A stretch of 64,000 bases of DNA from Candidatus Zambryskibacteria bacterium CG10_big_fil_rev_8_21_14_0_10_42_12 (GCA_002787695.1 PCXL01000011.1:61155-125154), one strand, 5' to 3'. Positions 7,344 to 63,490 are shown, counted from the first letter of the stretch. The notes: generated by a model from the sequence alone, not told the origin. Numbers and translations: made by a program.

Positions 7344-7581
7344 TGTTTTTATCTAAGCTCGTAAAAGTATCAATTGGTATCAATTTTAGCAGTAATGGGT
7401 ATTTTGGTATGGGGATAACGTTTGTAGGTTAAAACCAAGTATAAATTTAGGGGAGGTTTTAGCAGTGGTGTAAAAATATTGGTGGTACATATCTTTGGCA
7501 TGAACAAATTCGCGATAGGAGGTCTTTATATTGTGATCCTACGAAGCATTTAACGGAGAATTGTGATATAACGCTTATATT

Positions 7582-9362: not shown

Positions 9363-10078
9363 AAATGGGGGTCACCTGAAACACGGGTGACCCTTGTTCT
9401 TTTTTGTCTGAGCATTCTATATAATGTACACGCATAGGTAGACTCGCCGGTTTTCAGGCTCTCAGTTTTTGAAAGAAGATCATCTTCTGAACATGACGCA
9501 TTCTTACATGCAGTTTTTGTATTGCAAAAACCCAGAACGGAGCGTTTGGGGAAACAACCCTTAAAAAGGATTGACAAACGCTCCGTTCTGGGTTTTTAAC
9601 GTGCTTTCACCTTCATGAATGCCTTGCGGGCATTTTAATGATTTACAAGCTAAAGTCAAATATATGGCTCTGTTGGGTTTGACACTCAAAAAAATGTATC
9701 TCTTGTCCACAAAATGTGGATAAAGTTCGTTGACTCTTCATGGTCACGTCGTACCATTAGAAGTACGAGAACTGATGGGAAACCAGTACTCGGTCGCCGA
9801 CTATGCAATACAACTGGTTTCCAAAATTTTTCATAGCAGTATAAAACCGACAAACCCGGGGAAGAGGTATGTCGGTTTTTCGTAAAATTTGAAACCAGTT
9901 AGTCGAGAACCTCGACAATCCAAATGACAGAGCACAGAACGTGTTTGTGTTTTGATATTTGGATTGCCATTACGTATATCCCTTACACGGAGTATGCGTA
10001 TCGCAATTCAAAGTTAATGGTCGATATCATTCTCGTACGAGAAATTTATTACAAGAATTAATTAATCAAAGTAAAGAT

Positions 10079-10714
10079 ATGAAGAAAGTAACAGCAATTA
10101 TTGCTACAGTAGCATTTCTCGCAAGTGTGAACGTAGCAAACGCATGGTACTGGGGCGGATGGAATGATGATGACAATACGGTAAACATCAATACTACAAA
10201 TTCTGCAACAGTTTCAAATACAGTAACTACAAAGGCAAACACTGGCTCAAACACAACAGTTGGCGGTAGTGCTGGTAACACAGTATCTGGGTATGGCAAC
10301 AACGGTGGTAATGATGCTACTGGAGGAGATGCAGATGTTGATACTGGTGATGCAACAGCAGTTAGTGATGTTCTCAACAATGTGAACGGAACTGACATTA
10401 ACGTTGTTGGTCCAGACTGTGGTTGTGAAGGTGACAACGAAGTAAACGTAAACGTTAGAAATAGCGCAACGGTTACAAACGATGTTTACACCAAAGCAAA
10501 CACGGGCTACAACACAACAGTTGGCGGCAGTGCAGGTAATGATGTAGACGGCGCTACTCGCCCATGGTGGAGAAGACATCATGTGGTAAATGGTGGCAAC
10601 AACGGTGGTAATGATGCTACTGGAGGAGATGCAGATGTTGATACTGGAGAAGCAGTAAGTGGTACGGTGGTATCTAATTACGTAAACCAGACAATAGTTC
10701 GCGTACGACGATAA
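10079..10714 (+). CDS. Secreted repeat protein (signal peptide; internal repeats TKANTGxNTTVGGSAGN and NGGNDATGGDADVDTG)
   Basis: Start chosen at MKKVTAIIATVAFLASVNVANA (signal peptide). Two near-identical internal repeat blocks. Confidence 0.6.
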   Translation: MKKVTAIIATVAFLASVNVANAWYWGGWNDDDNTVNINTTNSATVSNTVTTKANTGSNTTVGGSAGNTVSGYGNNGGNDATGGDADVDTGDATAVSDVLNNVNGTDINVVGPDCGCEGDNEVNVNVRNSATVTNDVYTKANTGYNTTVGGSAGNDVDGATRPWWRRHHVVNGGNNGGNDATGGDADVDTGEAVSGTVVSNYVNQTIVRVRR

Positions 10715-10736
10715 TCGTACAAGGTGAGGAAGGTTC

Positions 10737-10782
10737 CCTTCCTCCCGCAAAATCCCATATTTTCGGGATTTTGCGGGAGGAA
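10737..10782. terminator. Intercistronic 16-bp perfect inverted repeat (CCTCCCGCAAAATCCC / GGGATTTTGCGGGAGG)
   Basis: Lies between the stop at 10714 and the start at 10794. Confidence 0.5.
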
Positions 10783-10793
10783 CACCGAAAATT

Positions 10794-11285
10794 ATGAAAA
10801 GAAACATCGTGTACATACTCTATATGGGAATATTATGGGCACTCGCACTCCCTGCGCAGGCTTATACAGAGGTGACAAATACGGTGACAACAGAGGCAAA
10901 TACAGGAGGCGGAGGTGGTACGGCGACGGTCAACACAAAGATCTACACAGAGGTAAATGGGGAGGTGATAACTGATATCGATGAGACAAAGACAAGCACA
11001 GACGGTTCTCCTGTAGTGATAGAAAAGGAAATCACATATTCAGATAATTGGAGAGATATACCAACGGACATAGACATGGTTTCAGAAACTCGTACGGAGA
11101 CATCTGTACAGGTTAAAGAGGATTCAGTAATGATGAATGAAGATGATGTCGATGCTATGGAAGAAGTAATGGAGGAGATGACGGAGGAGCGTCTAGAAGA
11201 TGTTGAGGCAAGATCAGAGGCACAGGTAACCGTGTTTGCACGCATTAAAGTATTTTTCAAAACATATGTATTTTGGTGGCTATAA
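10794..11285 (+). CDS. Secreted acidic protein sharing the T(E/K)ANTG motif with neighbours
   Basis: Signal peptide MKRNIVYILYMGILWALALPAQA, then YTEVTNTVTTEANTGGGGG and an acidic C-terminal half. Confidence 0.5.
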   Translation: MKRNIVYILYMGILWALALPAQAYTEVTNTVTTEANTGGGGGTATVNTKIYTEVNGEVITDIDETKTSTDGSPVVIEKEITYSDNWRDIPTDIDMVSETRTETSVQVKEDSVMMNEDDVDAMEEVMEEMTEERLEDVEARSEAQVTVFARIKVFFKTYVFWWL

Positions 11286-34873: not shown

Positions 34874-34970
34874 ATAACTTAAATTATGATAATAAAGTGC
34901 TAGAACGGCTCTCTAAAGCCATTCGACCTTTTACATAGAGAATGTGGGTGAGGCCCACAGGGAGAAAATG

Positions 34971-36341
34971 ATGAGGAAACTTATCGTATTGGCGAGCGTG
35001 CTCGCCATGATGTGCACGATGCTGGCTTCGGGCCAGACGTTGTTCGAGGGTGTCATTCAGACGAACGACAACCGCGAGGAGGTCGTCAAAATCACGGAGC
35101 AACCAGCGGTGCAGCCGCAGAAGCAAATCCAGGCTGTTGCGCCACAGGCGCAGCAGATCGAAGAGACTCAGGTGGCGGCACCTGTCGATCAGTCGGCGGT
35201 GACTCCTGAACCGACTGCGCCGGCTCAGGATGTCGCGGTTCAGACAGGCATACCTGACAACCCGACAAGCGAGTGGTTGGTCGAGTACATGCTCGGTGGT
35301 CTCTACTGGATAGTCAGAGCCGCATCAGATCTGACATTCTGGCAGATTTTGCTCATTATCCTGGCTGTATTGGCGGTAGCGGGGTTAGGGTATGGATGGT
35401 CGCAATTTCCGCACCCAGTAGCAGATCTGAAATCAAGAATGCGATCGGTATGGCGCAAGTTGCGGGTAGTGTTCGGTGATCATAAGTATCACCGTACCGA
35501 AACTTCCGGCGGACCGTATCGTAAACTGACGCTACTCGAGGATGTATTACGCCAAGGTTCAAAGTCAGGACCTCAACTGGTCTTGTTCTTGGGACTTTAC
35601 GCTGGTGTAGCGTCGGCGGCAGTGCTGACCAACGAGCCTGTGCTTCACCCACAAAACATCGAGCCGGTTGCCGTTGTTGAGAACACGACGTCGACTGTCA
35701 CGATCAGTTGCACGGCGAACATGTCGTGCAACAAGGTGAAGTCTGCGCGACTGGGTACGTCTGACCACGTGTCTGTAACTGCAACATCCAAAGACAAACT
35801 GGTGTTGCAGGTGAAAACTGGTCCTCGTTCGCACATTCAGGAGGACCGTATCGTTCTCCACTACGGTGATGGGGTGGAAAGGCGAATCGCCGGATTCTTC
35901 ACGCTGCCACGTCAGGCAGCTGAGACGATCGAATTCATGATGCGGTTGCATCCTGGTGAGCAGGAGGCTGGAGGTGCACACAGTGCAATCACTGCGGTCC
36001 TCCAAGCTGAGATCGACCGGATCGACCAGCACAAAGTTGACCCGCTCCGTGAGGAGGTAGAGAAACTCAAAGCTCGTGTCCAAGAAAACGAGCAACGAGT
36101 CAGGACAAATACCGGTCTCATGGCCGAGGTGCGCGACGAAGTCGTTGCTCTTCGTGACAGGGTCGGCGAGACAGAAGAGCGACTCGGCAAGCTCGAGCAC
36201 ACCGAGCGCTCACAGGTACTCTACGCCTGTGCCGGTTTCGGCACACGGCAAGAAAATGGCGCCGCACTTGCTGCGGTTGCCAAACGAGAAGGGAAGACAC
36301 CGAAGCAAGTCTGCGAAGACATGCAAACGGATCCTTTCTGA
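34971..36341 (+). CDS. Hypothetical exported/membrane protein with Gln/Pro-rich linker and C-terminal coiled coil (GC-rich)
   Basis: Signal-like N-terminus MMRKLIVLASVLAMMCTML, an internal TM segment ILLIILAVLAVAGLGYGW, and a C-terminal heptad-rich EEVEKLKARVQENEQRV... About 58% GC. Confidence 0.5.
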   Translation: MRKLIVLASVLAMMCTMLASGQTLFEGVIQTNDNREEVVKITEQPAVQPQKQIQAVAPQAQQIEETQVAAPVDQSAVTPEPTAPAQDVAVQTGIPDNPTSEWLVEYMLGGLYWIVRAASDLTFWQILLIILAVLAVAGLGYGWSQFPHPVADLKSRMRSVWRKLRVVFGDHKYHRTETSGGPYRKLTLLEDVLRQGSKSGPQLVLFLGLYAGVASAAVLTNEPVLHPQNIEPVAVVENTTSTVTISCTANMSCNKVKSARLGTSDHVSVTATSKDKLVLQVKTGPRSHIQEDRIVLHYGDGVERRIAGFFTLPRQAAETIEFMMRLHPGEQEAGGAHSAITAVLQAEIDRIDQHKVDPLREEVEKLKARVQENEQRVRTNTGLMAEVRDEVVALRDRVGETEERLGKLEHTERSQVLYACAGFGTRQENGAALAAVAKREGKTPKQVCEDMQTDPF

Positions 36342-37339: not shown

Positions 37340-37421
37340 GCCCGGGTGGCGGAACTGGTATACGCGCACGACTTAAAATCGTGTTCCGAAAGGGGTGCGG
37401 GTTCGATTCCCGCCCCGGGCA
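37340..37421 (+). tRNA. tRNA-Leu (anticodon TAA), type II
   Basis: GCCCGGGTGGCGGAACTGGTATACGCGCACGACTTAAAATCGTGTTCCGAAAGGGGTGCGGGTTCGATTCCCGCCCCGGGCA. Confidence 0.85.
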
Positions 37422-37610
37422 CAAGAATAAAAGAACTGGGCACGAATGTGTCTCGTGATTTTTATTCTCGCCTCGGGCGGGAATCGAAAGCCGGAGCGCG
37501 CGAAGCCGACCGTAGGTCGTGTGCGAGGCGGGGTCGCGACCTCCGTCGTGAAGATTTACCCAGCACTTATAACATAAGTGCTGGGTTTATCGAAACAGGA
37601 GAGTTGTGAC

Positions 37611-37628
37611 CGATTCCCGCCCCGGGCA
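37611..37628 (+). repeat. 18-nt direct repeat of the tRNA-Leu(TAA) 3' end (CGATTCCCGCCCCGGGCA)
   Basis: Identical to 37404-37421. The 190-bp segment between them contains hairpins and a partial inverted copy of the T-arm (GCGGGAATCGAA). Confidence 0.8.
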
Positions 37629-37677
37629 TCATATAAAAAGGAAATGCCCTCGCGGATGCGAGGGGCTTTATGGGGGA

Positions 37678-37851
37678 CTATGCAGCGTTGGCTGTCTCTC
37701 GGGCCAAAATAAGTTTTGGCCCGACTGGCTTGAGTTCACCACGTTTACCTATTTCAACATGGGTGAAATTTGCGAGCGTGATTAGGGCTCCTGGATTCAT
37801 GGCGACCAGGACGTCAATGACATCGTTAACAGGATAGACGCCAGGTTTCAT
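37678..37851 (-). CDS. Small hypothetical protein (57 aa) with its own hairpin terminator
   Basis: MKPGVYPVNDVIDVLVAMNPGALITLANFTHVEIGKRGELKPVGPKLILARETANAA. The stop is followed on the minus strand by GCCCCTCGCATCCGCGAGGGC plus a T-run. Confidence 0.3.
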   Translation of the reverse strand: MKPGVYPVNDVIDVLVAMNPGALITLANFTHVEIGKRGELKPVGPKLILARETANAA

Positions 37852-37988
37852 TTATATTGTTACTCCATACGAAAGATCGGGCCGAGAGTATTTTTATCAT
37901 ATCCTCGTATATATGCAACATAACGCATTCATGCATGCTTCATATGTAGACTGGGGGCGTCCTTTTTGTTATATTTCTTTTGTTTTAA

Positions 37989-38061
37989 CCGCCCATAGCT
38001 CAGTTGGTAGAGCAGTCGCCTCTTAAGCGAACGGTCGTAGGTTCGAATCCTACTGGGCGGA
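37989..38061 (+). tRNA. tRNA-Lys (anticodon CTT)
   Basis: CCGCCCATAGCTCAGTTGGTAGAGCAGTCGCCTCTTAAGCGAACGGTCGTAGGTTCGAATCCTACTGGGCGGA. It has anticodon loop CTCTTAA and an unusual C1:G72. Confidence 0.75.
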
Positions 38062-38076
38062 TGTAATTTAACTCTC

Positions 38077-38784
38077 GTGCTAATGTTTTTTATATTAATA
38101 TATGGTATACGCTATATGCCTTACAATATTAAATACTACAAAACATATCAGTGGAGTAAAAAGTTGGCATATATAATTGGACTTATTGCAACAGATGGAA
38201 GTCTGTCTGTTGACGAGCGTCATATTGATTTTACATCTAAAGATTTAGAGCTTATCAAAATTTTTAAAGATTGTCTGAAACTTTCAAATAAAATAGGTAT
38301 TAAGAAGAGCGGCACAAACAGAGTTTGTTTTTGTATACAATTTGGTAACAAGAATTTTTACAACTTTCTAAATTCTATAGGGATTTATAAGGCTAAATCC
38401 AAAACTATAAAAAGGATTGATATACCTAATAAATATTTTCCACATTTTTTACGTGGCTGTTTGGATGGCGATGGTAATATTGATTTATACAAACATGCAC
38501 AAAGTCAATATATGCAAATTAGATTTAGATTTGCATCTGCGAGTAAACCATTTCTAGAATGGATATTACAGGTATTAAAAATAAAATATAGTATTGAAGG
38601 AGGTTGGATTTATAGTCAAAAAAATAAATCAACCCATGTTTTAGTCTTTGGTAAGACAGACACTTTGAAAATTGGAAAAATCATGTATCATGACCATGCG
38701 AACTTATGCTTACAAAGGAAGTTTGCAAAATATAAACAATGGGCAAGTGGCGGAATTGGTATACGCGCTAGTCTTAGGAACTAG
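38077..38784 (+). CDS. LAGLIDADG homing endonuclease (double-motif), AT-rich; 3' end overlaps tRNA-Leu(TAG) by about 44 nt
   Basis: Two LAGLIDADG motifs, LAYIIGLIATDGSLS and FLRGCLDGDGNID. About 28% GC. It lies between tRNA-Lys and tRNA-Leu(TAG). Confidence 0.8.
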   Translation: MLMFFILIYGIRYMPYNIKYYKTYQWSKKLAYIIGLIATDGSLSVDERHIDFTSKDLELIKIFKDCLKLSNKIGIKKSGTNRVCFCIQFGNKNFYNFLNSIGIYKAKSKTIKRIDIPNKYFPHFLRGCLDGDGNIDLYKHAQSQYMQIRFRFASASKPFLEWILQVLKIKYSIEGGWIYSQKNKSTHVLVFGKTDTLKIGKIMYHDHANLCLQRKFAKYKQWASGGIGIRASLRN

Positions 38785-38822
38785 TGCCGCAAGGCTTGGG
38801 AGTTCGAGTCTCCCCTTGCCCA
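38741..38822 (+). tRNA. tRNA-Leu (anticodon TAG), type II
   Basis: GGGCAAGTGGCGGAATTGGTATACGCGCTAGTCTTAGGAACTAGTGCCGCAAGGCTTGGGAGTTCGAGTCTCCCCTTGCCCA. Confidence 0.85.
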
Positions 38823-38950
38823 CAGTGAGTTTTCGAACGAGGACAAGGACTAGCTTGTGATAACAAGCGTTAGTCTGACTCGAAGCCTGTTTGAGATATT
38901 TTGTGAGCTGGCGAAACAAAATATCCAAACACGGGTACTGAACCTGTAAG

Positions 38951-38974
38951 GTTCGAGTCTCCCCTTGCCCACAG
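38951..38974 (+). repeat. 24-nt direct repeat of the tRNA-Leu(TAG) 3' end (GTTCGAGTCTCCCCTTGCCCACAG)
   Basis: Identical to 38802-38825. The intervening 125 bp contains the hairpin GATATTTTGT...ACAAAATATC and a partial anticodon/T-arm-like stretch. Confidence 0.8.
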
Positions 38975-38984
38975 AAATATTAAT

Positions 38985-39059
38985 TGGAGGCGTAGAGGGG
39001 AATCGAACCCCTGCATAACGGTTTTGCAGACCGTCGTGTTACCACTTCACCACTACGCC
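38985..39059 (-). tRNA. tRNA-Cys (anticodon GCA), CCA encoded
   Basis: Minus strand GGCGTAGTGGTGAAGTGGTAACACGACGGTCTGCAAAACCGTTATGCAGGGGTTCGATTCCCCTCTACGCCTCCA. Confidence 0.85.
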
Positions 39060-41005: not shown

Positions 41006-41518
41006 TTATGAGAGTTTTGCGCGGGCTTCTTTGATTGCCTGCTTCTCTTCATTGGTGAGTTCAAACGTCGAAGAAAACTTTGAAAGTGGTTTGCCAAAGA
41101 GACTGACTCGTTCTCTAGAATAGAGGCTAGAAACAACAACGCCAGTACCTTCTTCGTCTACGAAGGCTGCAGCAAAACTCTGGTTGCCACCGGACCCTGT
41201 TCCTTTAAATGGATTGAAGCGGACAAGGGAGGTGCCACGCATACTACCTTTCATGCGCGCATCTAAGTTGTTAAACATGTCAGTTGCTGAATCGCGCCAG
41301 TCATCTAGTTCGTTTACGGCTTCACAGAGATCGACAATTGTTTTTTCAAGAGATACTGCACCTTTGCCTCGAACAAGGCGCGAAACACGACGAGATAGAT
41401 ATATTACAAATCCGATGAGAATGATATTTATAATAATCAAAAGCGTCACCGCTAGTGTTAGGGGATTGTTTAGAATCTCAGATCCATAGAATGTTGCTGT
41501 GTCAGTAAATGAGTTCAT
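41006..41518 (-). CDS. DUF4446 family protein (N-terminal TM anchor)
   Basis: RFNPFKGTGSGGNQSFAAAFVDEEGTGVVVSSLYSRE...NEEKQAIKEA matches the DUF4446 pattern as I recall it. Confidence 0.5.
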   Translation of the reverse strand: MNSFTDTATFYGSEILNNPLTLAVTLLIIINIILIGFVIYLSRRVSRLVRGKGAVSLEKTIVDLCEAVNELDDWRDSATDMFNNLDARMKGSMRGTSLVRFNPFKGTGSGGNQSFAAAFVDEEGTGVVVSSLYSRERVSLFGKPLSKFSSTFELTNEEKQAIKEARAKLS

Positions 41519-42810: not shown

Positions 42811-43620
42811 ATGGAAGAACTTAATCAACACCAACTTATTTTACTTGTACTCTTAGTGAGTTTTGTCACCTCTATAGGTACAGGAATCATTACGGTCTCT
42901 CTGCTCCAAGAAGCACCTCCGGTTGTGACATCTACCGTTAATCGCGTGGTTGAAAAAACAATTGAGACAGTCGTACAAGGTCCGTCAGAAAATAATGGAA
43001 ATAATAATACTGAAACGGTACGAGAGGTTACGGTAGTGGTAAACCAAGAAGATCTGGTAACTGAGTCAATTGCACAAAATTCTAAAAGTTTGGTACGCAT
43101 TTATGAGACACGACCACTTGGGAGCGAGCGTTTTTATGGTGTAGGAATTATGGTTCCGGGCGGAGTTATTTCCGGCATATCTTCACCGTATGATGGGTCA
43201 GCAAATTATAGAATCGAATATCCAGATGGTACCGAAACGCTTGTTACAAGGGTGCAAAATACAGCAGAAGAACAATTGGCTGCTTTTAAAATAACTGATG
43301 ATACGACTCATGCACCAGTGACGTTTGGTAATTCAGCTGCACTTAAACTCGGACAGACACTTATAACGATTGGTGGAGAATCGCAAAACGTGATATCTAT
43401 TGGCACGCTTTCGTCTCTCGTCACAGATGCAAGTGGTGTGCCAACAAGACTCGATCTTTCTATTGATGAAAAAGACTCTATAGCGGGTGCTCCTGTTATT
43501 ACATTACAGGGTAATATTGTAGGTATTCGTACACGCGAAACTCTCGCAGATGGAACGGTACGCGTGCGCTATATTCCTGCTCACGTTATTCAAAGTACGA
43601 TAGCTAAAATATCCAGTTAG
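42811..43620 (+). CDS. Membrane-anchored trypsin-like peptidase-domain protein, probably non-catalytic (no GNSGG serine motif)
   Basis: N-terminal TM. PDZ-less S1-like fold features GVGIMVPGGVISGISSPYDG and GAPVITLQGNIVGIRTRE. No His/Asp/Ser triad context found. Confidence 0.45.
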   Translation: MEELNQHQLILLVLLVSFVTSIGTGIITVSLLQEAPPVVTSTVNRVVEKTIETVVQGPSENNGNNNTETVREVTVVVNQEDLVTESIAQNSKSLVRIYETRPLGSERFYGVGIMVPGGVISGISSPYDGSANYRIEYPDGTETLVTRVQNTAEEQLAAFKITDDTTHAPVTFGNSAALKLGQTLITIGGESQNVISIGTLSSLVTDASGVPTRLDLSIDEKDSIAGAPVITLQGNIVGIRTRETLADGTVRVRYIPAHVIQSTIAKISS

Positions 43621-43744: not shown

Positions 43745-46423
43745 ATGCCACCATTTGGAAATTTCACAACTAAAGCAAAAGAAGCAATTAAACGAGCTCA
43801 TGAGCTTGCTATTGAACGTGGACAAAACCACGTAAACCAGCTTCATCTCCTAGCCTCATTATTGCTCCAGGATGAAAGCATGGTTATTTCTGTTCTTGAT
43901 CGATTAGAAATAGACACGGTACTACTCTCTGATGTAACGGTAGAAAGTATTGAGACACCAGATGCGGGTGGAACGCTGTCTCCTTCATACCAGATTTATC
44001 TCACGCCAGAACTGGCACACACGATCGAACATTCAGCAAAGGTGGCGCGCGAGATGGGAGATGAGTTTGTCTCAACCGAGCACTTGTTCCTCGCTATCCT
44101 TGATGTGAAAGGTCCTGCTACAGAAGTTCTTGCAAAGTTTAAGATCGAACGATCTGATGTACTTCGTCTCATCAATGAGATCAAGCATAGTCGCGAAGCA
44201 GAGGTTCCTCAGCAAAAGAAATTTAAATTTCTTGCAAAATTCACACGAAATCTTACGAAGCTTGCATTGCAAAACAAACTTGATCCGGTCATTGGTCGCG
44301 ATGAAGAAATTTCTCGTATCATTCAGATTCTTTCTCGTCGTACCAAAAACAATCCTATTTTAATTGGTGAAGCTGGTGTTGGAAAAACAGCAATTGTTGA
44401 AGGGCTCGCTATTCGCATGGCGACAGGCGACGTGCCAGAGTCACTCAAAAATAAAGAACTCGTTTCTCTCGATCTCGGACTTTTGATTGCTGGAACAAAA
44501 TATCGTGGAGAATTTGAAGAGCGACTCAAAAATATCTTGAAAGAAATCGAACGCGCTGACGGCAACATCATCATATTTATCGATGAGATTCATACGATTG
44601 TTGGTGCAGGATCTGCAGAAGGGTCAATCGATGCTTCAAATATGCTCAAACCGCCACTGGCTCGTGGAGAACTCCGAGCTATTGGTGCAACAACTATAAA
44701 AGAATATCAGCAACACATCGAAAAGGATCCGGCGCTCACGCGTCGTTTTCAGCCCGTGTTTGTCGAGGAACCTTCTCTTGATGACGCAGTGACAATCATG
44801 CGTGGTCTCAAAGAACGATACGAGCTCTATCATGGTGTACGTATTACAGATGATGCAATTGTCGCTTCCGTACATCTTTCCAGTCGTTACATCGCAGACC
44901 GATTCTTGCCTGATAAAGCAGTTGATCTTATTGATGAAGCAGCATCTCACCTCAAGATCTCTCTTGAGAGTATGCCCGCTGAACTTGAAGAAACGCACTC
45001 AAAGATTGTGAAGCTTGAAATAGAAAGAGAAGCTTTGAATCAGGAAGTGAGTGCATCTACGCGTAACGCAAAAGCAAAAAAACGCATTAAAGAAATCGAA
45101 CAAGAAATCGCTGATCTCCGAGAAACGACGAGTGAGCTTGAGATGCGTTGGAAAACAGAAAAAGAAATCGTAACTGATATTAAGTCTGTAAAAAAACAAC
45201 TTGATGAACTTCGCATTGAAGCTGAGGGGGCAGAAGCGCAGGCTGATCTTTCACGCGCCGCAGAGATTCGTTATGGAAAAATTCCAACCCTCGAGAAAGA
45301 ACTTGATCAAAATACCAAACGTCTTAAAACACTTCAGAAATCACGTCGCATTTTGAAAGAAGAAATTACGGAACAAGATATTGCGGACATTGTCTCACGA
45401 TGGACCGGGATTCCTGTTTCTCGCATGCTCGAAGAAGAAGCTGAGCGACTTCAAAAAATGGAAGACGAACTCAAGAAGCGCGTTGTAGGACAAGGTGAGG
45501 CCGTGTCGCGAATCGCGGATACTATCCGACGTTCACGTGTGGGAATTTCTGATCCAAATAGACCAATCGGCTCATTCATCTTCCTGGGACCAACTGGTGT
45601 TGGTAAAACAGAACTCACGAAAGCACTTGCCGAGTTTATGTTTGACGACGAAAAAGCACTTGTCCGCGTAGACATGTCTGAGTTTATGGAGAAGCATTCG
45701 GTTTCTAAACTGATTGGTTCACCTCCTGGATATGTGGGACATGACGAAGGAAGTGCGTTTGCAGAGAAGATTCGCCATCGACCATATTCTGTCGTTCTCT
45801 TTGATGAGATCGAAAAAGCTCATCCTGAAGTATTCAATGTATTGCTTCAAGTTCTTGATGACGGTCGTCTTACCGATGGAAAGGGACGTGTGATTAACTT
45901 CAAAAACGCTATCATCATTATGACCTCAAATATTGGTGCACAGTATATTGATAAAATGGAAAAGATTGGGTTCCATGGTGGCAGTGAAGCTGAAAAATAT
46001 GCAGACATGAAGGAGAAGGTGCTTGAAGCGCTCAAAGACCATTTCCGTCCAGAATTCATTAACCGTCTCGATGAAGTCATTGTCTTTGATGTCCTCGCAC
46101 CAGAGGTGATTAGCGATATCGTACATATTCAGATTGATGAAGTGAAGAAGCGATTGCTCGAAAAAGAAATTACATTGAAGCTTACTGATGAAGCACTCAA
46201 GGAACTCGGTAAGCAAGGATACAACCCAGAGTTCGGTGCACGTCCCTTGAAACGATTGATTCAGACAAAGATTCTCAATCATGCTGCGTCACTTATTATT
46301 TCAAAAGGAATTCAGCGCGGTGGTGAGATTATGGTTGATTGGAAAAATAATGAGTTTGTCTTTGAAGTGAAGAAGGGGAGGAAGGGGAGTATCTTGAAGA
46401 AGGCATTGGTGGAGACGGTGTAA
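43745..46423 (+). CDS. clpB: ATP-dependent chaperone ClpB
   Basis: Two AAA+ modules ([15 protein letters not shown]; [15 protein letters not shown]) and a long middle coiled-coil domain. Confidence 0.95.
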
Positions 46424-46624: not shown

Positions 46625-47431
46625 ATGGCTAGACGCTGGACAAAAGAAGAAGAGAAGTATTATCGAGATGAATTAGTAAATTTATATTACTCCAAAAACT
46701 TGAGCATGCATGAGGTAGCAAAGGTTTTGAATATAAAATCAGCTACGGTTTTTGATAGATTGCGCCGGTTACGTATTAACACGGTGCCTCATCTTAAGAA
46801 GGGTTATCGAAACGTTCGCAAAGATATTCGTATCCCAGATTGTCATGATGCAAATTTGGCAGAATTTTTTGGCATCATGTTGGGCGACGGCCACCTTTCT
46901 CATTTTCAAGTAACCGTAACATTGGGAACAAAAGAATATGTGTATGTGCAATATGTAAAAAAGTTAATGGAAAAAATTTTTAAAGTGCCAGTTAAAATCT
47001 CAGAAAGGAAGTTTAAGCGAACGGATAATAAGCATTATACTGTTTATTTTGGTTCAACCGTAACGAGTCAGTGGTTAAAAACTGAGGGTTTAGTAGAAAA
47101 TAAAGTGAAAAATCAAGTCGATGTTCCAAAGTGGATATTTGAAAATAATATATTCATGGAAAGATTTTTAAGAGGGTTTTTTGATACTGATGGATCGGTT
47201 TATAAATTGAGGCACGGCATACAAATTGGACTAACAAACCGTTCACTACCGATGCTGAAATCTTTACAATTGATGCTAAAAACACTAGAATACAGGACGT
47301 CTGAAATCAGTGGTTTTCGCTTGTATATAACAAAGAAGCAGGATCTAAAAAGGTTTTTTAAAGAGATTAAACCGAAAAATCCAAAACATACTGCCAGATT
47401 TCAGGAATATCTCAATGCGTCAGTCGCATAG
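46625..47431 (+). CDS. LAGLIDADG homing endonuclease (double-motif) with N-terminal HTH; 3' end overlaps tRNA-Tyr by 15 nt
   Basis: Two LAGLIDADG motifs, LAEFFGIMLGDGHLS and FLRGFFDTDGSVY. N-terminal LSMHEVAKVLNIKSATVFDRLRRL is HTH-like. AT-rich. The stop codon TAG lies inside the tRNA-Tyr acceptor/D region. Confidence 0.8.
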   Translation: MARRWTKEEEKYYRDELVNLYYSKNLSMHEVAKVLNIKSATVFDRLRRLRINTVPHLKKGYRNVRKDIRIPDCHDANLAEFFGIMLGDGHLSHFQVTVTLGTKEYVYVQYVKKLMEKIFKVPVKISERKFKRTDNKHYTVYFGSTVTSQWLKTEGLVENKVKNQVDVPKWIFENNIFMERFLRGFFDTDGSVYKLRHGIQIGLTNRSLPMLKSLQLMLKTLEYRTSEISGFRLYITKKQDLKRFFKEIKPKNPKHTARFQEYLNASVA

Positions 47432-57227: not shown

Positions 57228-58499
57228 ATGCTCGATATAAAATTCATTAGAGAGAATAAGGACATTATTAAAGAAGCGGCTCGCAAGAAGCATGTGAAGT
57301 TTGAAGTGGACGAGCTGTTGAAGGTGGACGAGGAACGCCGAGAGGTGTTGCAGGTAGTTGAAGAGCTTCGTTTTAAGCAAAACGATGTGTCTCGCAGAAT
57401 CAATAATGTGTCTGAACCAGAGCGTCCTTTTGTTATCAAAGAGATGCAAGGTGTAAAGGAAGAACTTAAGGAAAAAGAAGAAAAACTAAAGGGAATCATG
57501 AAAGACTGGCAGACACTCATGCTTCAGGTGCCGAATATTCCGGATATGTCTGTGCCCGAAGGAAAAACTGATGAAGAAAATAAAGAAGTGAAAGACTGGG
57601 GGGAGAAAAAAGAATTTTCATTCAAACCAAAAAACCATATCGAACTCTGTGAACTGCATGACTTGGCAGATTTCGAGCGTGGCACTAAGATCGCAGGATT
57701 TCGTGGATATGTTTTAAAAAATGAAGGTGCAGCGTTGTCGTTTGCACTGTGGCAACTGGCATTTAAACACTTTACCCAAAAAGGATTTGAACCAATGGTT
57801 GTACCGTCTCTTGTACGTAAAGAGCTTCTGTATGGAAGTGGATATTTGCCACAAGGCGAAGACGATCTCTATAAAACGCAGGACGAAGATTACTTGGCTG
57901 GAACCGGTGAAGTTTCTACGATGGGTTACTACATGAATGAGGTGCTACCAAAAGACATGTTGTCAAAAAAAATGTTGGCATTTTCACCGTGTTTTAGGCG
58001 TGAAGCTGGAAGCCATAGTAAAGACACAAAAGGATTGATGCGTGTGCATGAATTTTTCAAACTAGAACAAGTAGTGCTTTGTGAAGCGAGTCATGAAGTG
58101 TCGGTTAAACTGCATGAAGAAATCAATCGAAACACTGAAGAGCTTATTGAAATACTCGGTATTCCGTATCGTACGGTTGTAAATTGTGGCGGTGACCTAG
58201 GGCTTGGTCAGGTTAAAAAATACGACATCGAGTTATGGGTACCTTCGCAGGATACCTATAGGGAAATTAGTTCAGCATCATACTTTCATGATTTTCAGAC
58301 ACGGAGACTTAATATCAAATATAAAGATGATGATGGCACTATGCGATTTGCGCACTCTCTTAACTGCACAGGATTACCTAGTCCGCGTATACTGATTGCG
58401 CTTTTAGAAAACAATCAAAACGAAGATGGTTCGATTACTATTCCAGAAGTACTGCGTCCATATCTTGGTGGTCAAGAGATCATAAATAAAAAACAATAA
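57228..58499 (+). CDS. serS: Seryl-tRNA synthetase
   Basis: N-terminal coiled-coil arm and class II motifs (FRREAGS, GLGQVKKYDIE). Confidence 0.95.
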   Translation: MLDIKFIRENKDIIKEAARKKHVKFEVDELLKVDEERREVLQVVEELRFKQNDVSRRINNVSEPERPFVIKEMQGVKEELKEKEEKLKGIMKDWQTLMLQVPNIPDMSVPEGKTDEENKEVKDWGEKKEFSFKPKNHIELCELHDLADFERGTKIAGFRGYVLKNEGAALSFALWQLAFKHFTQKGFEPMVVPSLVRKELLYGSGYLPQGEDDLYKTQDEDYLAGTGEVSTMGYYMNEVLPKDMLSKKMLAFSPCFRREAGSHSKDTKGLMRVHEFFKLEQVVLCEASHEVSVKLHEEINRNTEELIEILGIPYRTVVNCGGDLGLGQVKKYDIELWVPSQDTYREISSASYFHDFQTRRLNIKYKDDDGTMRFAHSLNCTGLPSPRILIALLENNQNEDGSITIPEVLRPYLGGQEIINKKQ

Positions 58500-58503
58500 G
58501 TAT

Positions 58504-59343
58504 ATGATGTTGGGAAGAGACGCCCTGCACTCTCGCTCTTATGCGAGAAAATATAAAAAAAGGTCAAAGATTTTTCTGTGGCTTGCCGGTATCCTATTTC
58601 TGCTCGGTATTCTTTTTTCATGGTGGGTCACCGATAAGTCACCACTGGTTATAAAACATGTAGAAGTTGTTGGTGCTCGCGCACTGTCGGTTAGCAGTAT
58701 ACAAGATGTGGCTCAAAACGAATTACAACATAGGTATCTCATGTGGCACGTTGGAAATGCAATCTTGGCGCCGAGAAAACGTATTGAAGAGCAGCTCAAA
58801 GAGAAATTCTCACTTATTAAAACAGTCGATGTGGAAGTGAAAGGTATTTCGAATTTAGAAATATCTATTGAAGAATACGAGTCTACATATCTCATATGCT
58901 CTCAAACAGACCCTTCTCGATGTTATTTGGCTGATGGAACAGGATATGTGTTTGCGCCAGCTATTCTTTCGGAGGAAACGCGTGCGTATATACGATTTAA
59001 TGTAACATTTGGTGATGAGGTGGTAGGTAGTCGTGTTATCTCTCGAAATAATTTTGAAAAAATAATTTTGTTTAAAGAAGCGCTTGCTGACAGTGGATTG
59101 TCTGTACAAGAGATTACGGTCGTTAGTGATCAAGAAGTAAAACTTCGAATCATAGAAGGAGCCAATATTGTGATAGATATGCAAAGTAATATAGATGAAA
59201 TGCTCGGAAACTTCCTATTATTGCTTGCAGAAGAAACGGAAAAAAATTCGAGTCGGGAGGTGTTTTTAGAGAATACAGAGTACATTGATGTACGTCATGG
59301 AAATAAAGTTTTCTACAAGGCACGTGGAGAGAATGCTTTATAA
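58504..59343 (+). CDS. FtsQ/DivIB-like cell-division protein (cytoplasmic N-terminus, one TM, POTRA-like domain)
   Basis: TM ILFLLGILFSWWV, then VIKHVEVVGARALSVSSIQDV, which is POTRA-like. Confidence 0.5.
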   Translation: MMLGRDALHSRSYARKYKKRSKIFLWLAGILFLLGILFSWWVTDKSPLVIKHVEVVGARALSVSSIQDVAQNELQHRYLMWHVGNAILAPRKRIEEQLKEKFSLIKTVDVEVKGISNLEISIEEYESTYLICSQTDPSRCYLADGTGYVFAPAILSEETRAYIRFNVTFGDEVVGSRVISRNNFEKIILFKEALADSGLSVQEITVVSDQEVKLRIIEGANIVIDMQSNIDEMLGNFLLLLAEETEKNSSREVFLENTEYIDVRHGNKVFYKARGENAL

Positions 59344-59351
59344 TATACATC

Positions 59352-59741
59352 ATGACACAGGCGCTGCTTTTAGCAGATTACATGAGGTGGCACTATACGC
59401 GCGCATTCTCTTCAATGTGGCGTGTCACCAATAATTTTGTTTATTTTTTTTATAATCTTTTTTCAATTTCATTATTGCTCCATACGTTTTTTGCGCCATG
59501 GAAAATGATGACAGAACAAAAAACAAAAGGATTTACATCACTGAGTTCATTATTTGAAAGAATTTTTGGAAATTTTTTGGTGCGTGTGATAGGTGCGATC
59601 ATTCGCTTTGTGACGATAACTATCGGTCTTATCTTTTGTGTGGGTACGTTTTTATGTGGGTTGGTATTTACGATCTTTTGGGTTGTCGCACCATTAGTGA
59701 TGGTCTTTTCTCTAATTGTTGGTATTCGTTTGATTATATAA
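59352..59741 (+). CDS. Hypothetical 4-TM membrane protein
   Basis: 129 aa, hydrophobic, no motifs. Confidence 0.35.
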   Translation: MTQALLLADYMRWHYTRAFSSMWRVTNNFVYFFYNLFSISLLLHTFFAPWKMMTEQKTKGFTSLSSLFERIFGNFLVRVIGAIIRFVTITIGLIFCVGTFLCGLVFTIFWVVAPLVMVFSLIVGIRLII

Positions 59742-59743
59742 AT

Positions 59744-62146
59744 ATGACGTGGAACGACTTAGCACAAAAAGTACATAAATGGCGAGGAGTTTTGTGGCTT
59801 AATCACATATTTCCTCATGCCATACGAAAAATCCTATTTTTTATAAGTGCAGTGGCATTGCTCATTTCCGTAACACTCTCATTGCCGGTAGTGAATATGG
59901 GAAATGAATTTATTTACGGTGTGTTTTTTGTAGGTGCGAGTATCTGGCTTTTCGTGTTTATGCTCGAGGCCTATTATAAATCATATTATTTTGCTGGAAT
60001 TATTGATCGAAAAGGTAAGGCGGATCTTTATACTTATGAAATTGCAGACATTCTCATGGTGGGGGCAGGTACGGATGTTGCGCGCGGTATATTCTTTTCT
60101 GAACTTGGAAAAGAAAGAATAATTCGACTCGGAATCAAGACGCAAGATGTAGACATGTTTTTCAAAAGTCGCCATCGACCGATTGGTTCGCATATTCTTG
60201 AATATACAGGAGACAATGTAACAGCGAGAGAGCTCGCAAAAGCTGTTATTGAATATGATGCTGAACTCAAGGAATTTCTTGCGGGATATGGTATTACACC
60301 GCAAACATTTGTCGGTGCAGTAGATTGGGTTTCAAAAACTCATATGATCACCTTGCAAGAAGAAGCATGGTGGACGAGACAAAAGCTCTCGAGAATACCA
60401 GGTATTGGCAAGAGTTGGTCCCTTGGATATGTATCTGAACTTTCTCGTTTAGGCAATCCACTTTCAGAGAGTCCAGAATATAAAGTAGTAACGATAACAT
60501 CGACTTCAGAAAAGACAGTTGATGAAATTGAGTCAATTCTCTCGAGAACAAACAACGCAAACGTACTCGTGGTAGGAGAGAATCAACACAACATGATGGG
60601 TCTGGTAGCGTCTCTCGGTAGGCGTATCGAACAAGGTAGCGCATATCCGGAGATTGAACACAAACGCATGTATGTGCTGTATCATGATCGTATTTTTGCA
60701 GAAGCAAAAGATACACAAACTCTTGAATCGTTGCTTCATAAAATGTTTAAAGAAGCTGTCAGATCAGAAGAAGTGATAATCGTGATTCGGGATCTCAATG
60801 GATTTATAGAAACTGCTCGAAGCTATTCAGTCGATCTTATTGAGTTTATGAGACCGTATATTTCTTCACCCTTGGTGCAGATTATTGGTTTGGTTGAGAA
60901 GTCTGTGTTCGAGTCATCTATGAGAACGAATCACAATATACTTGGTCTATTTGATCATGTCTCGTATGACGAAAAAGAAACAAACGATTCGTTACTCCAG
61001 ATAGTTGAGCAGGAGGTACTCACGATAGAACATGACGTTGATGTTCGTTTTACCTATGCTGCAGTACATGTGGCATCGGAACAAATCGGCAGATTGTTTG
61101 CAACAGGCGAGCAATTGACACGTGTTCATACGATTCTATCTGAATTAGCACTCAAGGCGAAAAATGAAAAACACGGTTTTGTTACAAAGAATGATGTTGA
61201 GGATTTGCTTCACGTAAAAACTGGAGTACCAGGTAGTCATGTCTCAAAAGAAGAAAAGGCGATACTATTGGAACTTGAATCGTTACTCCATAATCGTGTC
61301 GTGGGACAAGATGATGCGATTCGTGCGATTGGTGATGCTCTGCGGAAAAAACGATCTGGTATTGGGAACCCTAACAAACCAATCGGTTCATTCCTGTTTT
61401 TGGGCTCAACGGGTGTGGGAAAGACGGAAACAGCGCGGACACTTGCAGATGTATTTTTTGGTAGTGAAAGCGATATGGTTCGGTTTGACATGACTGAATT
61501 CAGTGGTGCAGACGCACTCGTACGGTTGTTGGGTGATTTTAAAACTGGTAAGCCAGGATTACTTGTGTCAAAACTTCGTGAAAAACCATACAGCATTATT
61601 TTGTTAGACGAGTTTGAAAAAGCACATAAAGATGTGCACGATTTGTTTCTTCAGATCCTTGATGAGGGAGTATTTTCAGATATGAAAGGGGAACAGGTGA
61701 ATGCGCGCAACACGATCATTGTTGCCACATCAAATGCAGGAAGCGATCTTATTTGGAATTTGATGGCGAAACAGACACCGCCCGCACATATGCGTGAGAC
61801 AGTGATAGATCATATTATTGATGAGGCAATATTTCGCCCAGAATTACTCAATCGATTTGACGGGGTCATTGTCTTTCACCCTCTTGAGAAATCTCATTTG
61901 AGCCAAGTTGCAGAGAGAATGCTTGCAAAACTTTCAGAACGTTTGCGAGATCAAGGGTATCATTTTTCATACAGCAAGGACCTCGTAGATCGATTGGTGC
62001 AAATAGGTAGTGATCCAAAATTTGGTGCACGCCCTATTGCACGTGCTATATCTGAACGGGTAGAAGGTGCTATTGCACGACATATTCTCCAAGGGAAAAT
62101 AAAGACGGGGGACACCATACATATTTCTGCTAAGGATCTTTTGTAG
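59744..62146 (+). CDS. Membrane-anchored Clp/Hsp100-like AAA+ protein with degenerate first ATPase domain (Walker A lost) and intact second domain
   Basis: N-terminal two TM helices. The D1-homologous region VDEIESILSRTNNANVLVVGENQHNMMGLVASLGRR aligns to Clp[38 protein letters not shown] but lacks GxxGxGKT. D2 is intact: FLFLGSTGVGKTETARTLA, a sensor, and a C-terminal small domain. Confidence 0.7.
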   Translation: MTWNDLAQKVHKWRGVLWLNHIFPHAIRKILFFISAVALLISVTLSLPVVNMGNEFIYGVFFVGASIWLFVFMLEAYYKSYYFAGIIDRKGKADLYTYEIADILMVGAGTDVARGIFFSELGKERIIRLGIKTQDVDMFFKSRHRPIGSHILEYTGDNVTARELAKAVIEYDAELKEFLAGYGITPQTFVGAVDWVSKTHMITLQEEAWWTRQKLSRIPGIGKSWSLGYVSELSRLGNPLSESPEYKVVTITSTSEKTVDEIESILSRTNNANVLVVGENQHNMMGLVASLGRRIEQGSAYPEIEHKRMYVLYHDRIFAEAKDTQTLESLLHKMFKEAVRSEEVIIVIRDLNGFIETARSYSVDLIEFMRPYISSPLVQIIGLVEKSVFESSMRTNHNILGLFDHVSYDEKETNDSLLQIVEQEVLTIEHDVDVRFTYAAVHVASEQIGRLFATGEQLTRVHTILSELALKAKNEKHGFVTKNDVEDLLHVKTGVPGSHVSKEEKAILLELESLLHNRVVGQDDAIRAIGDALRKKRSGIGNPNKPIGSFLFLGSTGVGKTETARTLADVFFGSESDMVRFDMTEFSGADALVRLLGDFKTGKPGLLVSKLREKPYSIILLDEFEKAHKDVHDLFLQILDEGVFSDMKGEQVNARNTIIVATSNAGSDLIWNLMAKQTPPAHMRETVIDHIIDEAIFRPELLNRFDGVIVFHPLEKSHLSQVAERMLAKLSERLRDQGYHFSYSKDLVDRLVQIGSDPKFGARPIARAISERVEGAIARHILQGKIKTGDTIHISAKDLL

Positions 62147-62175: not shown

Positions 62176-63315
62176 TTGTTATCCATGTCTTACTATATGG
62201 GATTTTGGGAAAAACTGAAAAAACCGATTTATGCATTGGCGCCGATGGCGGATGTTACTGATGCAGCTTTCAGGCAACTCATCGCACGAAAAAGTAAATT
62301 TGATAAAAAAGGCGGTAATACAGGTGCGGAGTATGTCTCATGGACAGAATTTGTTTCAGCAGACGGTCTTGCACTTGCTCCCGAAGAAGGGAGACAGAAA
62401 CTGATGAAAGCGTTACTGTATTCCGAGATTGAACGGCCCATTGTCGCACAATTTTTTGGAAGCAATCCGGATCATATGGAAGCAGCGGCACGCCTTGCGT
62501 TAGAGCTCGGTTTTGATGGAGTAGATATCAATATGGGTTGCCCAGATCGCTCTATTGAGAAACAAGGTGCAGGTGCTGCGATGATAAAAACTCCTGAGGT
62601 GGCACGTGAGATTATTCGTGCTGTAAAACGAGGTGCCCGCCTGCCATCGTCTACGACTTCAGTCAATGGCGGGCAGGCTACACAGGGAGACAAACAAATC
62701 CCTGTTTCTGTAAAAACGCGTCTTGGGTACAACAAAGATGAACTCGATACATGGCTTCTTGTACTTCTGGAAGAAAAGCCGGCAGCTGTAACAATTCATG
62801 CGAGAACAAGAAAGGAGATGTCTAAAGTTCCTGCACACTGGAACAGGATTAAAGATGCGGTAGATATCAGAAACGAGATGGGAAGTAAAACTTTGATTAT
62901 TGGTAATGGAGATTTGGGGACACTTAGTGATGGGGATCAGAAAATACAAGAGACTGGTGCAGATGGGGTCATGTTTGGTCGTGGAGTTTTTGGTAATCCA
63001 TGGTTTTTTAATAAAGAATTAGTTTCAGATGATGAAGTTGCTTTACCAGTTCGTGGTCAGACAGAAGGAGATAAGGTGCGATACAGTAATACTAAAATTT
63101 CCCAGGAAGACAGATTGAAAACTTTGTTAGAACATGCAGAATTGTTTGATGAATTTTTGGGAGACACTAAAAGTTTTGCTGTCATGAAAAAACATGTGAA
63201 GGCATATATCTCCGGTTTCCTCGGCGCAAAGGAAATCCGTGATCAACTTATGCAGACAAAAGATCTTCAAGAATTTCGCAACTCTCTTAAAATTTATAAA
63301 CTTGCTACCGACTGA
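62176..63315 (+). CDS. dus: tRNA-dihydrouridine synthase with an in-frame insert of about 20 aa encoded by a GC-rich hairpin repeat element
   Basis: ALAPMADVTDAAFR, GVDINMGCP, IPVSVKTRLGY. The insert RGARLPSSTTSVNGGQATQGDKQ corresponds to the 42-bp element at 62636-62677. Confidence 0.85.
   Translation: MLSMSYYMGFWEKLKKPIYALAPMADVTDAAFRQLIARKSKFDKKGGNTGAEYVSWTEFVSADGLALAPEEGRQKLMKALLYSEIERPIVAQFFGSNPDHMEAAARLALELGFDGVDINMGCPDRSIEKQGAGAAMIKTPEVAREIIRAVKRGARLPSSTTSVNGGQATQGDKQIPVSVKTRLGYNKDELDTWLLVLLEEKPAAVTIHARTRKEMSKVPAHWNRIKDAVDIRNEMGSKTLIIGNGDLGTLSDGDQKIQETGADGVMFGRGVFGNPWFFNKELVSDDEVALPVRGQTEGDKVRYSNTKISQEDRLKTLLEHAELFDEFLGDTKSFAVMKKHVKAYISGFLGAKEIRDQLMQTKDLQEFRNSLKIYKLATD
62636..62677. 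repeat. 42-bp GC-rich hairpin element (arms CCCGCCTGCCA ... GCGGGCAGG), copy B, in-frame within dus; copy A at 1108-1149
   Basis: Copies A and B have identical length and identical arms in the same orientation. The central 14-bp core (CTGAAGTCGTAGAC against GTCTACGACTTCAG) is inverted between them. Confidence 0.6.
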
Positions 63316-63490
63316 TATTGCTAATAAATTTAGTATTGGCTATGATAAGGAGAGTATCAAACTGTTTGCGAGAATTGTCTCGCAACACTCTGCTCTTTAC
63401 TCTACCTTGTAGAGTGTACCCTCGATATCAACCCCACGCCGTCCATCCTCAGGTGGACGGCGTAACCCTTTTTTGCGAAAATAGACAGAC

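Follow-up and report, generated by a model that had tools for sequence, protein, structure and literature searches.

The Clp/Hsp100 machines are textbook examples of soluble unfoldases driven by two motors, and none of the bacterial members known to us is integral to the membrane. The protein discussed here is encoded on the plus strand at 59744..62146 of a 64,000-nucleotide stretch of DNA from Candidatus Zambryskibacteria bacterium CG10_big_fil_rev_8_21_14_0_10_42_12 (GCA_002787695.1, PCXL01000011.1:61155-125154). The stretch as a whole is called the window, and all coordinates refer to its first letter. The product, 800 amino acids plus stop, is a paralogue of the two-ring (class-I) Clp/Hsp100 ATPases that is specific to Patescibacteria and has turned into an integral membrane protein. 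As judged from hydropathy, Pfam, phmmer, AlphaFold2 and Foldseek, its architecture can be given with high confidence: an N-in transmembrane (TM) hairpin is followed by a Clp_N-like domain, a Trp-rich insertion, a dead first ATPase domain (D1) and a competent second one (D2) with its D2-small domain, while the M-domain and the ClpP loop are lacking. The function is a matter of more cautious wording. With a probability of about one half, the protein is a D2-powered machine that remodels or extracts proteins close to the membrane and works with a small membrane partner encoded next to it. In a full-text search of the literature, neither a bacterial Hsp100 that is integral to the membrane or dead in D1 nor this family of the candidate phyla radiation (CPR) turned out to be described.

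The gene and its start codon

The longest open reading frame (ORF) at this site extends from 59636 to 62146 and starts with TTG. The ATG at 59744, which sits 2 nt past the stop (59741) of the preceding gene, yields the product of 800 residues. In the family alignment, which comprises 114 full-length representatives and underlies all counts out of 114 given below, the Met in the column of 59744 starts 105 homologues. Independent gene calls by JGI and Logan give the identical 800-residue product. The NCBI record PIR38266.1 (Candidatus Zambryskibacteria) comprises 830 residues; its start lies 30 codons farther upstream, within the partner gene, with which it overlaps. This longer version is a 'hypothetical protein' for NCBI and a 'Clp R domain-containing protein' for UniRef, and some relatives carry the IMG label 'ClpC'. 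Family alignment, JGI and Logan all favour 59744, and the public 830-residue model is probably over-extended. Since the start Met is conserved and the two independent calls agree, the TM segments are not an artefact of a mis-called start, a doubt that had been attached to the initial annotation; start and hairpin alike are conserved family-wide. The family analysis corrects the automatic annotation both in the start codon and in the 'ClpC' label.

The AlphaFold2 model of the 800-residue protein has a mean predicted local distance difference test (pLDDT) of 92.4 and a predicted template modelling score of 0.87. Its top Foldseek matches in the PDB are two-tier protomers of ClpC and ClpB (E 1e-37 to 1e-39; TM-score about 0.75 per target).

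The inactive D1 domain

The D1 module, a pseudo-ATPase with large and small subdomains, comprises residues 250-475 (60491..61168, plus strand), as delimited by hhalign and phmmer. Its ancestry is clear. When a profile of 28 family sequences was aligned by hhalign with residues 106-404 of the ClpB encoded in the same window, the probability was 99.7% (E 2e-26). By phmmer, residues 249-441 align to residues 170-361 of Thermus thermophilus ClpB (domain E 2e-4), and in a search against structures residues 256-794 are colinear with ClpA 192-733; the NCBIfam model of ClpA likewise spans residues 256-795. A Pfam scan of the 800-residue product recognised only D2 and ClpB_D2-small and returned no match for D1.

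What is left of the catalytic motifs is easily described. In place of the Walker A sequence of ClpB, GEAGVGKTA, the protein has GENQHNMMG (60575..60601, plus strand); the Walker B of ClpB, IIFIDEIH, corresponds to VIIVIRDLN (60773..60799, plus strand), and its pore loop GTKYRGEFE to EAKDTQTLE (60701..60727, plus strand). In the AlphaFold2 model, the D1 fold reaches a pLDDT above 90. A helix begins at residue 281, straight after the strand 274-278, and therefore no P-loop is left in D1. An intact Walker A of non-canonical type was looked for in the alignment and is not there: the Lys is missing, the Gly-rich loop is missing, and the model has a helix instead. The initial annotation had described this module as a homologue of ClpB D1 that has lost its Walker A. 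This was correct, and the losses extend to Walker B and to the pore Tyr.

The same holds across the family. The Walker A Lys of D1 is found in 31 of the 114 members and the adjoining Ser or Thr in a single one; the GK[ST] signature, too, occurs in D1 of one member only, and 113 members have exactly one canonical Walker A, located in D2. The catalytic Glu of the D1 Walker B persists in 5/114, the pore Tyr in none (0/114), and the second Arg-finger position is Arg in 41/114. Residues of presumably structural importance are kept, namely N273, E328 and E429; E328, downstream of the pore-loop remnant, is present in 106/114. At the level of motifs, D1 is a domain that retains the AAA+ fold without Walker A, Walker B and pore Tyr, and mostly without the Arg finger, and its catalysis is lost.

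At the position of the D1 P-loop the family displays a graded decay from GE.GVGK[LMI] to random sequence. The member with GK[ST], P0087 (ENA contig, 813 residues), has an intact Walker A, GEAGVGKS, and a Walker B that already reads VIEN; in many others GE.GVGK is completed by Leu, Met or Ile. Taken together, these sequences resemble successive stages of a stepwise decay, and some family members may still bind nucleotide in D1.

The D2 domain and its intact motifs

The large AAA+ domain of D2 comprises residues 515-712 (61286..61879, plus strand), with the Pfam family AAA_2 recognised at residues 545-706 (2e-42). The D2-small domain follows at residues 714-795 (61883..62128, plus strand; PF10431 at residues 714-794, 7.5e-22). 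Both matches are far above their cut-offs: 145 bits versus 27 for PF07724 (AAA_2), 77.6 versus 21.9 for PF10431. All catalytic elements are intact on the plus strand: Walker A GSTGVGKT (61403-61426), Walker B IILLDEFEK (61595-61621), sensor-1 TSN (61727-61735), the Arg finger NRFD (61850-61861) and, within the small domain, sensor-2 GAR (62024-62032). The residues K560, T561, D622, E623, T662, N664, R704, G761 and R763 are invariant in 114/114. To judge from this set of motifs, which is complete, D2 is competent. That D2 keeps Walker A and B, sensor and C-terminal domain had been stated before, and the Pfam matches and the invariant residues bear it out.

Two accessories of related machines are absent. 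Between the end of the D1 alignment (about ClpB residue 404) and the start of D2 (about ClpB 520-527) there is nothing, and no M-domain was found there; the protein is colinear with ClpA, which has no M-domain either, and the alignments of D1 and D2 abut. The ClpP-docking loop IGF/LGF, i.e., [ILV]-G-[FL] after the D2 sensor-1, is absent from this protein, as the initial annotation had suspected, and the motif occurs in only 1/114 members; the region behind sensor-1 is of ClpB-like length and lacks the tripeptide. The scanned ORFs of the window do not include a ClpP. A partnership with ClpP was considered and rejected for lack of the docking loop and of a ClpP among these ORFs.

Membrane hairpin, N-domain and Trp-rich insertion

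The TM hairpin (59816..59989, plus strand) consists of TM1 (residues 25-45), a short outside loop (46-53) and TM2 (54-82), which includes the juxtamembrane motif E..YY.S.YF. Kyte-Doolittle windows of 19 residues exceed 1.6 across residues of about 26-53 and 55-78, and AlphaFold2 places helices at 25-45 and 54-82 with a pLDDT of about 85-96. Two hydrophobic segments at this position are seen in 98/114 family members. Two N-terminal TM helices that distinguish the protein from the ClpB at 43745 had been proposed at the outset, and hydropathy, model and family agree on them. In the family, the net charge is +2.5 ahead of TM1 and -0.4 in the loop. This charge bias fits a topology with both termini inside and the ATPase in the cytoplasm.

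Residues 95-205 (60026..60358, plus strand), with seven helices predicted by AlphaFold2, are probably a divergent Clp_N (Clp R) domain. When the long family profile is aligned by hhalign, its match to ClpB includes the second Clp_N repeat, and the rule-based UniProt name 'Clp R domain-containing protein' agrees with the assignment.

Between the N-domain and D1 lies an insertion that is specific to the family, basic and rich in Trp (residues 206-235; 60359..60448, plus strand). It reads EEAWWTRQKLSRIPGIGKSWSLGY in this protein and RWWSR..L.RIPGIGK.W.YG in the consensus. W210 and G228 are invariant or nearly so; W209, L215 and G222 are highly conserved. ClpB lacks the insertion, which is gapped in the hhalign alignment, and with a mean pairwise identity of 44% it is the best-conserved segment of the N-terminal part.

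The small membrane partner and the gene neighbourhood

The gene that adjoins the Clp gene upstream (59352..59741, plus strand) encodes a protein of 129 residues without any Pfam family; the Pfam search gave no match even at E<=5. Of the 65 loci that extend far enough upstream, 64 have a homologue of it immediately before the membrane Clp gene, in the same orientation. The gap has a median of 2 nt and is 15 nt or less in 60/64; in 12 loci the genes overlap by 4 nt. Because the partner lies directly upstream in 64/65 loci with this median gap, the two genes can be regarded as a module, and the pattern of gaps is the signature of translational coupling and of a stoichiometric complex, as far as gene order can tell. 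In one Parcubacteria locus (L047), a second copy of the partner (7121-7510) lies directly downstream of the membrane Clp gene; the same locus has, on the opposite strand (9568-11022), a separate Clp-like ATPase of 483 residues that comprises D2 only (AAA_2 and D2-small).

We found 201 partner homologues of about 127-135 residues. Those with a source name, which come from Paceibacterota, Kaiser-, Taylor- and Nealsonbacteria, are without exception annotated as 'hypothetical protein'. Conserved residues are Y10, W13-H14-Y15, N28, F37-S38, P49-W-x-R52, R78..G81, R85 and W110..P114, and the N-terminus displays the motif Y..WHY, followed in the protein by FS...L..T.F.PW.R. A basic central stretch, cytoplasmic by prediction, precedes a hydrophobic, charge-free C-terminus of about 45 residues, which probably forms a TM hairpin that turns at W110..P114. 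The AlphaFold2 model is all-helical (pLDDT 90.8), and comparison of this fold with the PDB gave no match.

Both genes belong to a run of five on the plus strand, with gaps of 4, 8, 2 and 29 nt. It begins with seryl-tRNA synthetase (SerRS, 57228..58499), continues with an FtsQ/DivIB-like gene that encodes an N-terminal TM segment and a POTRA_1 domain (58504..59343; Pfam 3e-5), the partner and the Clp gene, and ends with dihydrouridine synthase (Dus, 62176..63315; Pfam 2e-54). A terminator scan detected a strong terminator-like hairpin past Dus, at 63436-63463. Across loci, Dus is found downstream in 37/50, and DprA, TopA, MiaA, ParB, a cytidylyltransferase, RF and DnaX are further neighbours. 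A link to a recurrent downstream AAA+ gene was considered and rejected; the gene is DnaX. The sole invariant linkage is that of partner and ATPase, and it is embedded in housekeeping genes and not in an island. Of the envelope apparatus that the initial annotation had placed nearby, one FtsQ-like POTRA gene remains and no more than that, and its synteny is limited to 36/56 loci.

A large family of Patescibacteria

At first sight, the protein had been treated as a singular oddity. This it is not. An exhaustive HMMER search with its N-terminal 478 residues against 1.84 billion representatives of clusters at 50% identity yielded 964 proteins at E<=1e-3, of which 510 remain at E<=1e-10 and 191 at E<=1e-30. 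Among the top 150 matches, nearly all comprise about 790-850 residues and are aligned from residue 1. A word-indexed search with the same 478 residues gave 2 matches, and the profile of 28 sequences was swamped by canonical ClpB and ClpV.

The species genomes of GTDB were scanned by pattern and tblastn, starting from a hand-picked subset that shares the motifs RWWSRD and MPDKA. The scan returned 80 loci, some 70 of which (L003-L072, L076) are strong family matches. Nearly all of these bear the title Patescibacteria, Parcubacteria group, Paceibacterota, Kaiser-, Taylor-, Lloyd-, Yonath-, Campbell- or Nomurabacteria, plain 'bacterium' or the catch-all 'uncultured Candidatus Saccharibacteria'; one short contig (L010) stems from a bin titled Myxococcales. 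The weak tail of the scan (L073-L075, L077-L082) consists of canonical Clp proteins from other phyla. Mean pairwise identity increases from 21% in the TM region, 24% in the N-domain and 30% in D1 to 40% in D2-small, 44% in the insertion and 57% in D2. By these sequence criteria, the membrane Clp proteins are a large, old and Patescibacteria-wide family with its centre in the Parcubacteria/Paceibacteria.

Relation to known AAA+ proteins

In a broad sense the protein is a class-I Clp/Hsp100 member: AAA_2 and D2-small exceed the Pfam cut-offs, and D1 is homologous. It falls outside every narrower family with which it was compared. The ClpB models TIGR03346 and PRK10865 score 342 bits versus a cut-off of 1232 and 310 versus 1417, respectively, and only D2 aligns; of the two sites that characterise ClpB, the one in D1 is without Walker A, Walker B and pore Tyr, and the GYVG loop of D2 is replaced by the shorter DFKTGKP. 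The ClpA model TIGR02639 scores 295 bits versus 993. For ClpV/TssH (TIGR03345) the score is 259 versus 885, and genes of a type VI secretion system are absent from the neighbours. Peptidase_M41 (PF01434), the hallmark of FtsH, gave no match in the Pfam scan of the Clp-like protein. The protein is not a Torsin, since its Arg finger R704 is invariant, its D1 tier is present and its pore loop is only partly degenerate; nor does it belong to Dodola/DolB, to which it is linked by a generic D2 match only, without DolA and without a defence island. From the beginning, the protein had been taken for a Clp/Hsp100 paralogue that differs from the ClpB at 43745, and rightly so. Its D2 is 36% identical to D2 of this genuine ClpB (43745-46423; E 2e-62).

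With ClpA, ClpC and ClpB the family shares the order of N-domain, D1, D2 and D2-small and the homology of the D1 fold. Unlike these, it has a TM hairpin, the RWW insertion and an obligate small membrane partner; its D1 is dead and its D2 pore loop shortened. The M-domain of ClpB and ClpC is missing, as is the IGL/VGF ClpP loop of ClpA and ClpC.

Other AAA+ proteins are reminiscent of it in particular aspects. FtsH and Msp1/ATAD1 have an N-terminal anchor and a ring whose entry face is turned toward the membrane, and extraction of membrane proteins is proposed for them as it is here. They are, however, single-ring enzymes of the classical clade with conserved aromatic pore loops, FtsH with its M41 protease, whereas the present protein is of Clp type, two-tiered with the upper tier dead, devoid of a protease domain and weak in its pore loop. 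Torsins and Skd3 (human CLPB) use a ClpB-D2-type motor as their sole active ATPase domain; the nucleotide-binding domain of Skd3 is matched at 1e-32 (phmmer). Torsins are derived from ClpB D2, associated with membranes, free of pore aromatics and dependent on membrane partners. In contrast to Torsins and Skd3, the family is bacterial and keeps an inactive D1 tier, an N-domain and the Arg finger, which Torsins lack. The partners differ as well: a tiny helical membrane protein here, an AAA-like activator in the case of Torsins. Finally, NSF (D2), PEX1/PEX6 (D1) and plant SMAX1/D53 keep one tier as a structural ring; SMAX1 (9kkx), itself ClpB-like, is a weak match (E 1.4e-4). These proteins are eukaryotic and soluble, and the inactive ring of NSF binds ATP, whereas most members of the present family have no P-loop in D1. 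In its working, the protein would be most like a hybrid of FtsH/Msp1, as regards geometry, and the double-tier AAA+ proteins with a single active ring, i.e., NSF, PEX1/6 and SMAX1.

Proposed mechanism

How could such a protein work? The ATPase would assemble as a ring, because the Arg finger of D2, which acts in trans and is invariant, makes sense only in an oligomer; from the motifs we infer a hexamer with ATP hydrolysis by D2. D2 would be the sole motor, and the D1 tier would serve as a non-catalytic scaffold or spacer, like D2 of NSF or D1 of PEX1/6. A mere 15 residues or so separate the N-terminal anchor from the N-domain, and for this reason the N-domain/D1 face, the site of substrate entry in ClpA, ClpB and ClpC, should point at the membrane. 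The TM hairpin of the partner would pack against that of the ATPase, both above the N/D1 face, and the Trp-rich insertion and the aromatic N-terminus of the partner would lie at the membrane interface. The machine would then act from the cytoplasmic side on proteins embedded in or associated with the membrane, be it by extraction, disassembly or remodelling. Its action might resemble that of an FtsH without protease or an Msp1-like dislocase that hands its clients to refolding or to other proteases. In view of the frequent FtsQ-like neighbour, the clients are possibly proteins of the divisome or the envelope. Quality control of membrane proteins is a reasonable guess as to the role. Since a genuine ClpB coexists in the window, the membrane Clp should be an added function and not a replacement.

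Several observations weigh against this mechanism. The most critical one is the D2 pore loop, GDFKTGKPG (61532..61558, plus strand), which stands where ClpB has a longer loop of the GYVG type. It is 4-6 residues shorter than the latter in 112/114 members, and it contains an aromatic residue in 64/114 (56%), mostly Phe in a version of nine residues; the other 44% have none. In the AlphaFold2 model the loop site lies between helices 591-596 and 606-613, and its counterpart in ClpB lies between the helix that ends with LIG and the one that follows. The aromatic residue of the present protein is F599, and Phe or Tyr is found in about 80% of the long-loop majority. Classical threading is doubtful with a D2 loop that is short and partly non-aromatic, and nothing speaks more strongly against a processive version of it than the weak pore loops; a loop shortened and only partly aromatic leads us to expect pulling or remodelling over short range rather than long processive threading. 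The label 'unfoldase' of the initial annotation is, in consequence, not secured, the more so as the pore Tyr of D1 is missing throughout. Also, the AlphaFold2 model is that of a monomer and does not address the assembly, and the ring, the complex with the partner and the orientation in the membrane are read from motifs, adjacency and charge bias. If the N-region alone is compared with Clp N-domains by local hhalign, the match is weak (probability 43%, E 2e-4). Finally, the FtsQ-like gene is found upstream in 36/56 loci (64%), in 31 of them directly adjacent to the partner, and this synteny might point to a role more specific than general quality control, e.g., in division.

Alternative readings

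The short pore loops invite an alternative that we consider somewhat unlikely, yet serious. The protein could be a nucleotide switch that does not thread at all; ATP cycling in D2 would alter the conformation or the assembly of the partner, or of divisome or envelope proteins such as the FtsQ-like neighbour, much as Torsins do with their membrane partners. Neither ring has a canonical pore loop, the coupling to one small membrane protein is obligate, and an FtsQ-like gene is often adjacent; Torsins, moreover, offer the precedent of a ClpB-D2 derivative at the membrane that does without pore aromatics. The switch is at variance with the invariance of the Arg finger, sensor-2 and the entire catalytic set of D2, which is that of working ring motors and unlike that of Torsins. 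F599, with its frequent Phe or Tyr counterparts, does not suit it either, and the N-domain and D1 tier typical of Clp proteins that handle substrates are kept in full, at high predicted confidence.

More daring, and in our opinion unlikely, is a machine peculiar to Patescibacteria in which 12 TM helices of the ATPase and some 12 of the partner would be assembled over the dead D1, while D2 as the lone motor would draw polypeptides from the membrane, or across it, into the cytoplasm. By analogy with Hsp93/TIC or Cdc48/Hrd1, this could mean dislocation without a protease or even import. If true, it would be the first integral-membrane Clp/Hsp100 ring and possibly a core adaptation of ultra-small, host-dependent cells.

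An outright translocation channel, with the protein as its motor and the TM hairpins as conduit, has to be called improbable, whether it serves import (or retro-translocation) or export. Parallels exist: Hsp93/ClpC of chloroplasts works in import at the TIC, and HSP101 of Plasmodium in export within PTEX. At a stoichiometry of 1:1, as many as 24 TM helices of a hexamer would come to lie over the ring axis, two per protomer and two per partner; an entry face turned toward the membrane suits inward pulling, and Patescibacteria are auxotrophs that depend on a host. The outer loops of both hairpins, however, are very short and not conserved, an obvious polar lining of a pore is not seen, and the weakness of the pore loops speaks against it as well. 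Export would require the opposite orientation, as the exit face of D2 is directed away from the membrane, and no genes of secretion or uptake are conserved in the neighbourhood.

Two further proposals need not detain us. An annotation artefact or decaying gene, i.e., a soluble ClpC/ClpA with a mis-called start or an incipient pseudogene, may be suspected from the IMG label 'ClpC', the NCBI start and the degenerate D1 motifs, but it is ruled out by the conservation within the family: start Met and hairpin are common property, ORFs are intact in hundreds of lineages, D2 residues are invariant, the D1 fold is predicted above pLDDT 90 with N273, E328 and E429 conserved, and the curated cut-offs for ClpB and ClpA are missed widely. 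An anti-phage defence ATPase related to DolB (Dodola) or PDC-M37B, suggested by PADLOC matches on residues 501-782 (4e-31 and 5e-31, respectively), is just as negligible and was rejected, because these matches cover the generic ClpB-type D2 only, partner and FtsQ-like protein have no PADLOC match, and the neighbourhood is a housekeeping one conserved across the class and not a variable island.

Why the family deserves attention

The family combines features that should surprise specialists of AAA+ structure. Of its two rings, one would be no more than a scaffold and the other has a truncated pore loop, and its obligate partner is an orphan protein of the membrane. Uncultivated bacteria of a very large radiation share it, and in databases it passes as 'hypothetical', as 'Clp R domain-containing' or, wrongly, as 'ClpC'. 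Nature has here performed an experiment on the role of the D1 tier once ATP is no longer burned in it. For the genome-reduced Patescibacteria, the protein is a candidate for the quality control of membrane proteins or for the assembly of division or envelope proteins, and with its two genes it is a clean target for heterologous expression and cryo-EM.

Other genes of the window

The genuine ClpB of the window (43745-46423, plus strand, 892 residues) matches the whole TIGR03346 model including the M-domain, with 1193 bits just below the cut-off of 1232. Past its D2 sensor-1 it has an insertion of eight residues that contains KIGFHGG and corresponds in position and length to the ClpP-docking loop of ClpC and ClpA; the loop of Bacillus subtilis ClpC reads KYVGF. 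Possibly, this is a ClpB that is endowed with a ClpP loop by nature. Just upstream of it are genes for a DUF4446 protein (41006-41518, minus strand) and a trypsin-like peptidase of the Trypsin_2 family (42811-43620, plus strand).

Free-standing ORFs resembling LAGLIDADG_3 homing endonucleases are found at 46625-47431 and 38077-38784, both on the plus strand (E 6e-17 and 2e-13, respectively); the former lies just downstream of ClpB beside a tRNA gene, the latter within the tRNA cluster 37340-39059. The ORFs 32567-34873 (minus strand, 767 residues) and 34944-36341 (plus strand, 465 residues) have no Pfam match, and a protein of 900 residues encoded at 11236-13938 (plus strand) displays DUF11 repeats only. 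These three are typical candidates for the 'dark' surface proteins of the CPR.

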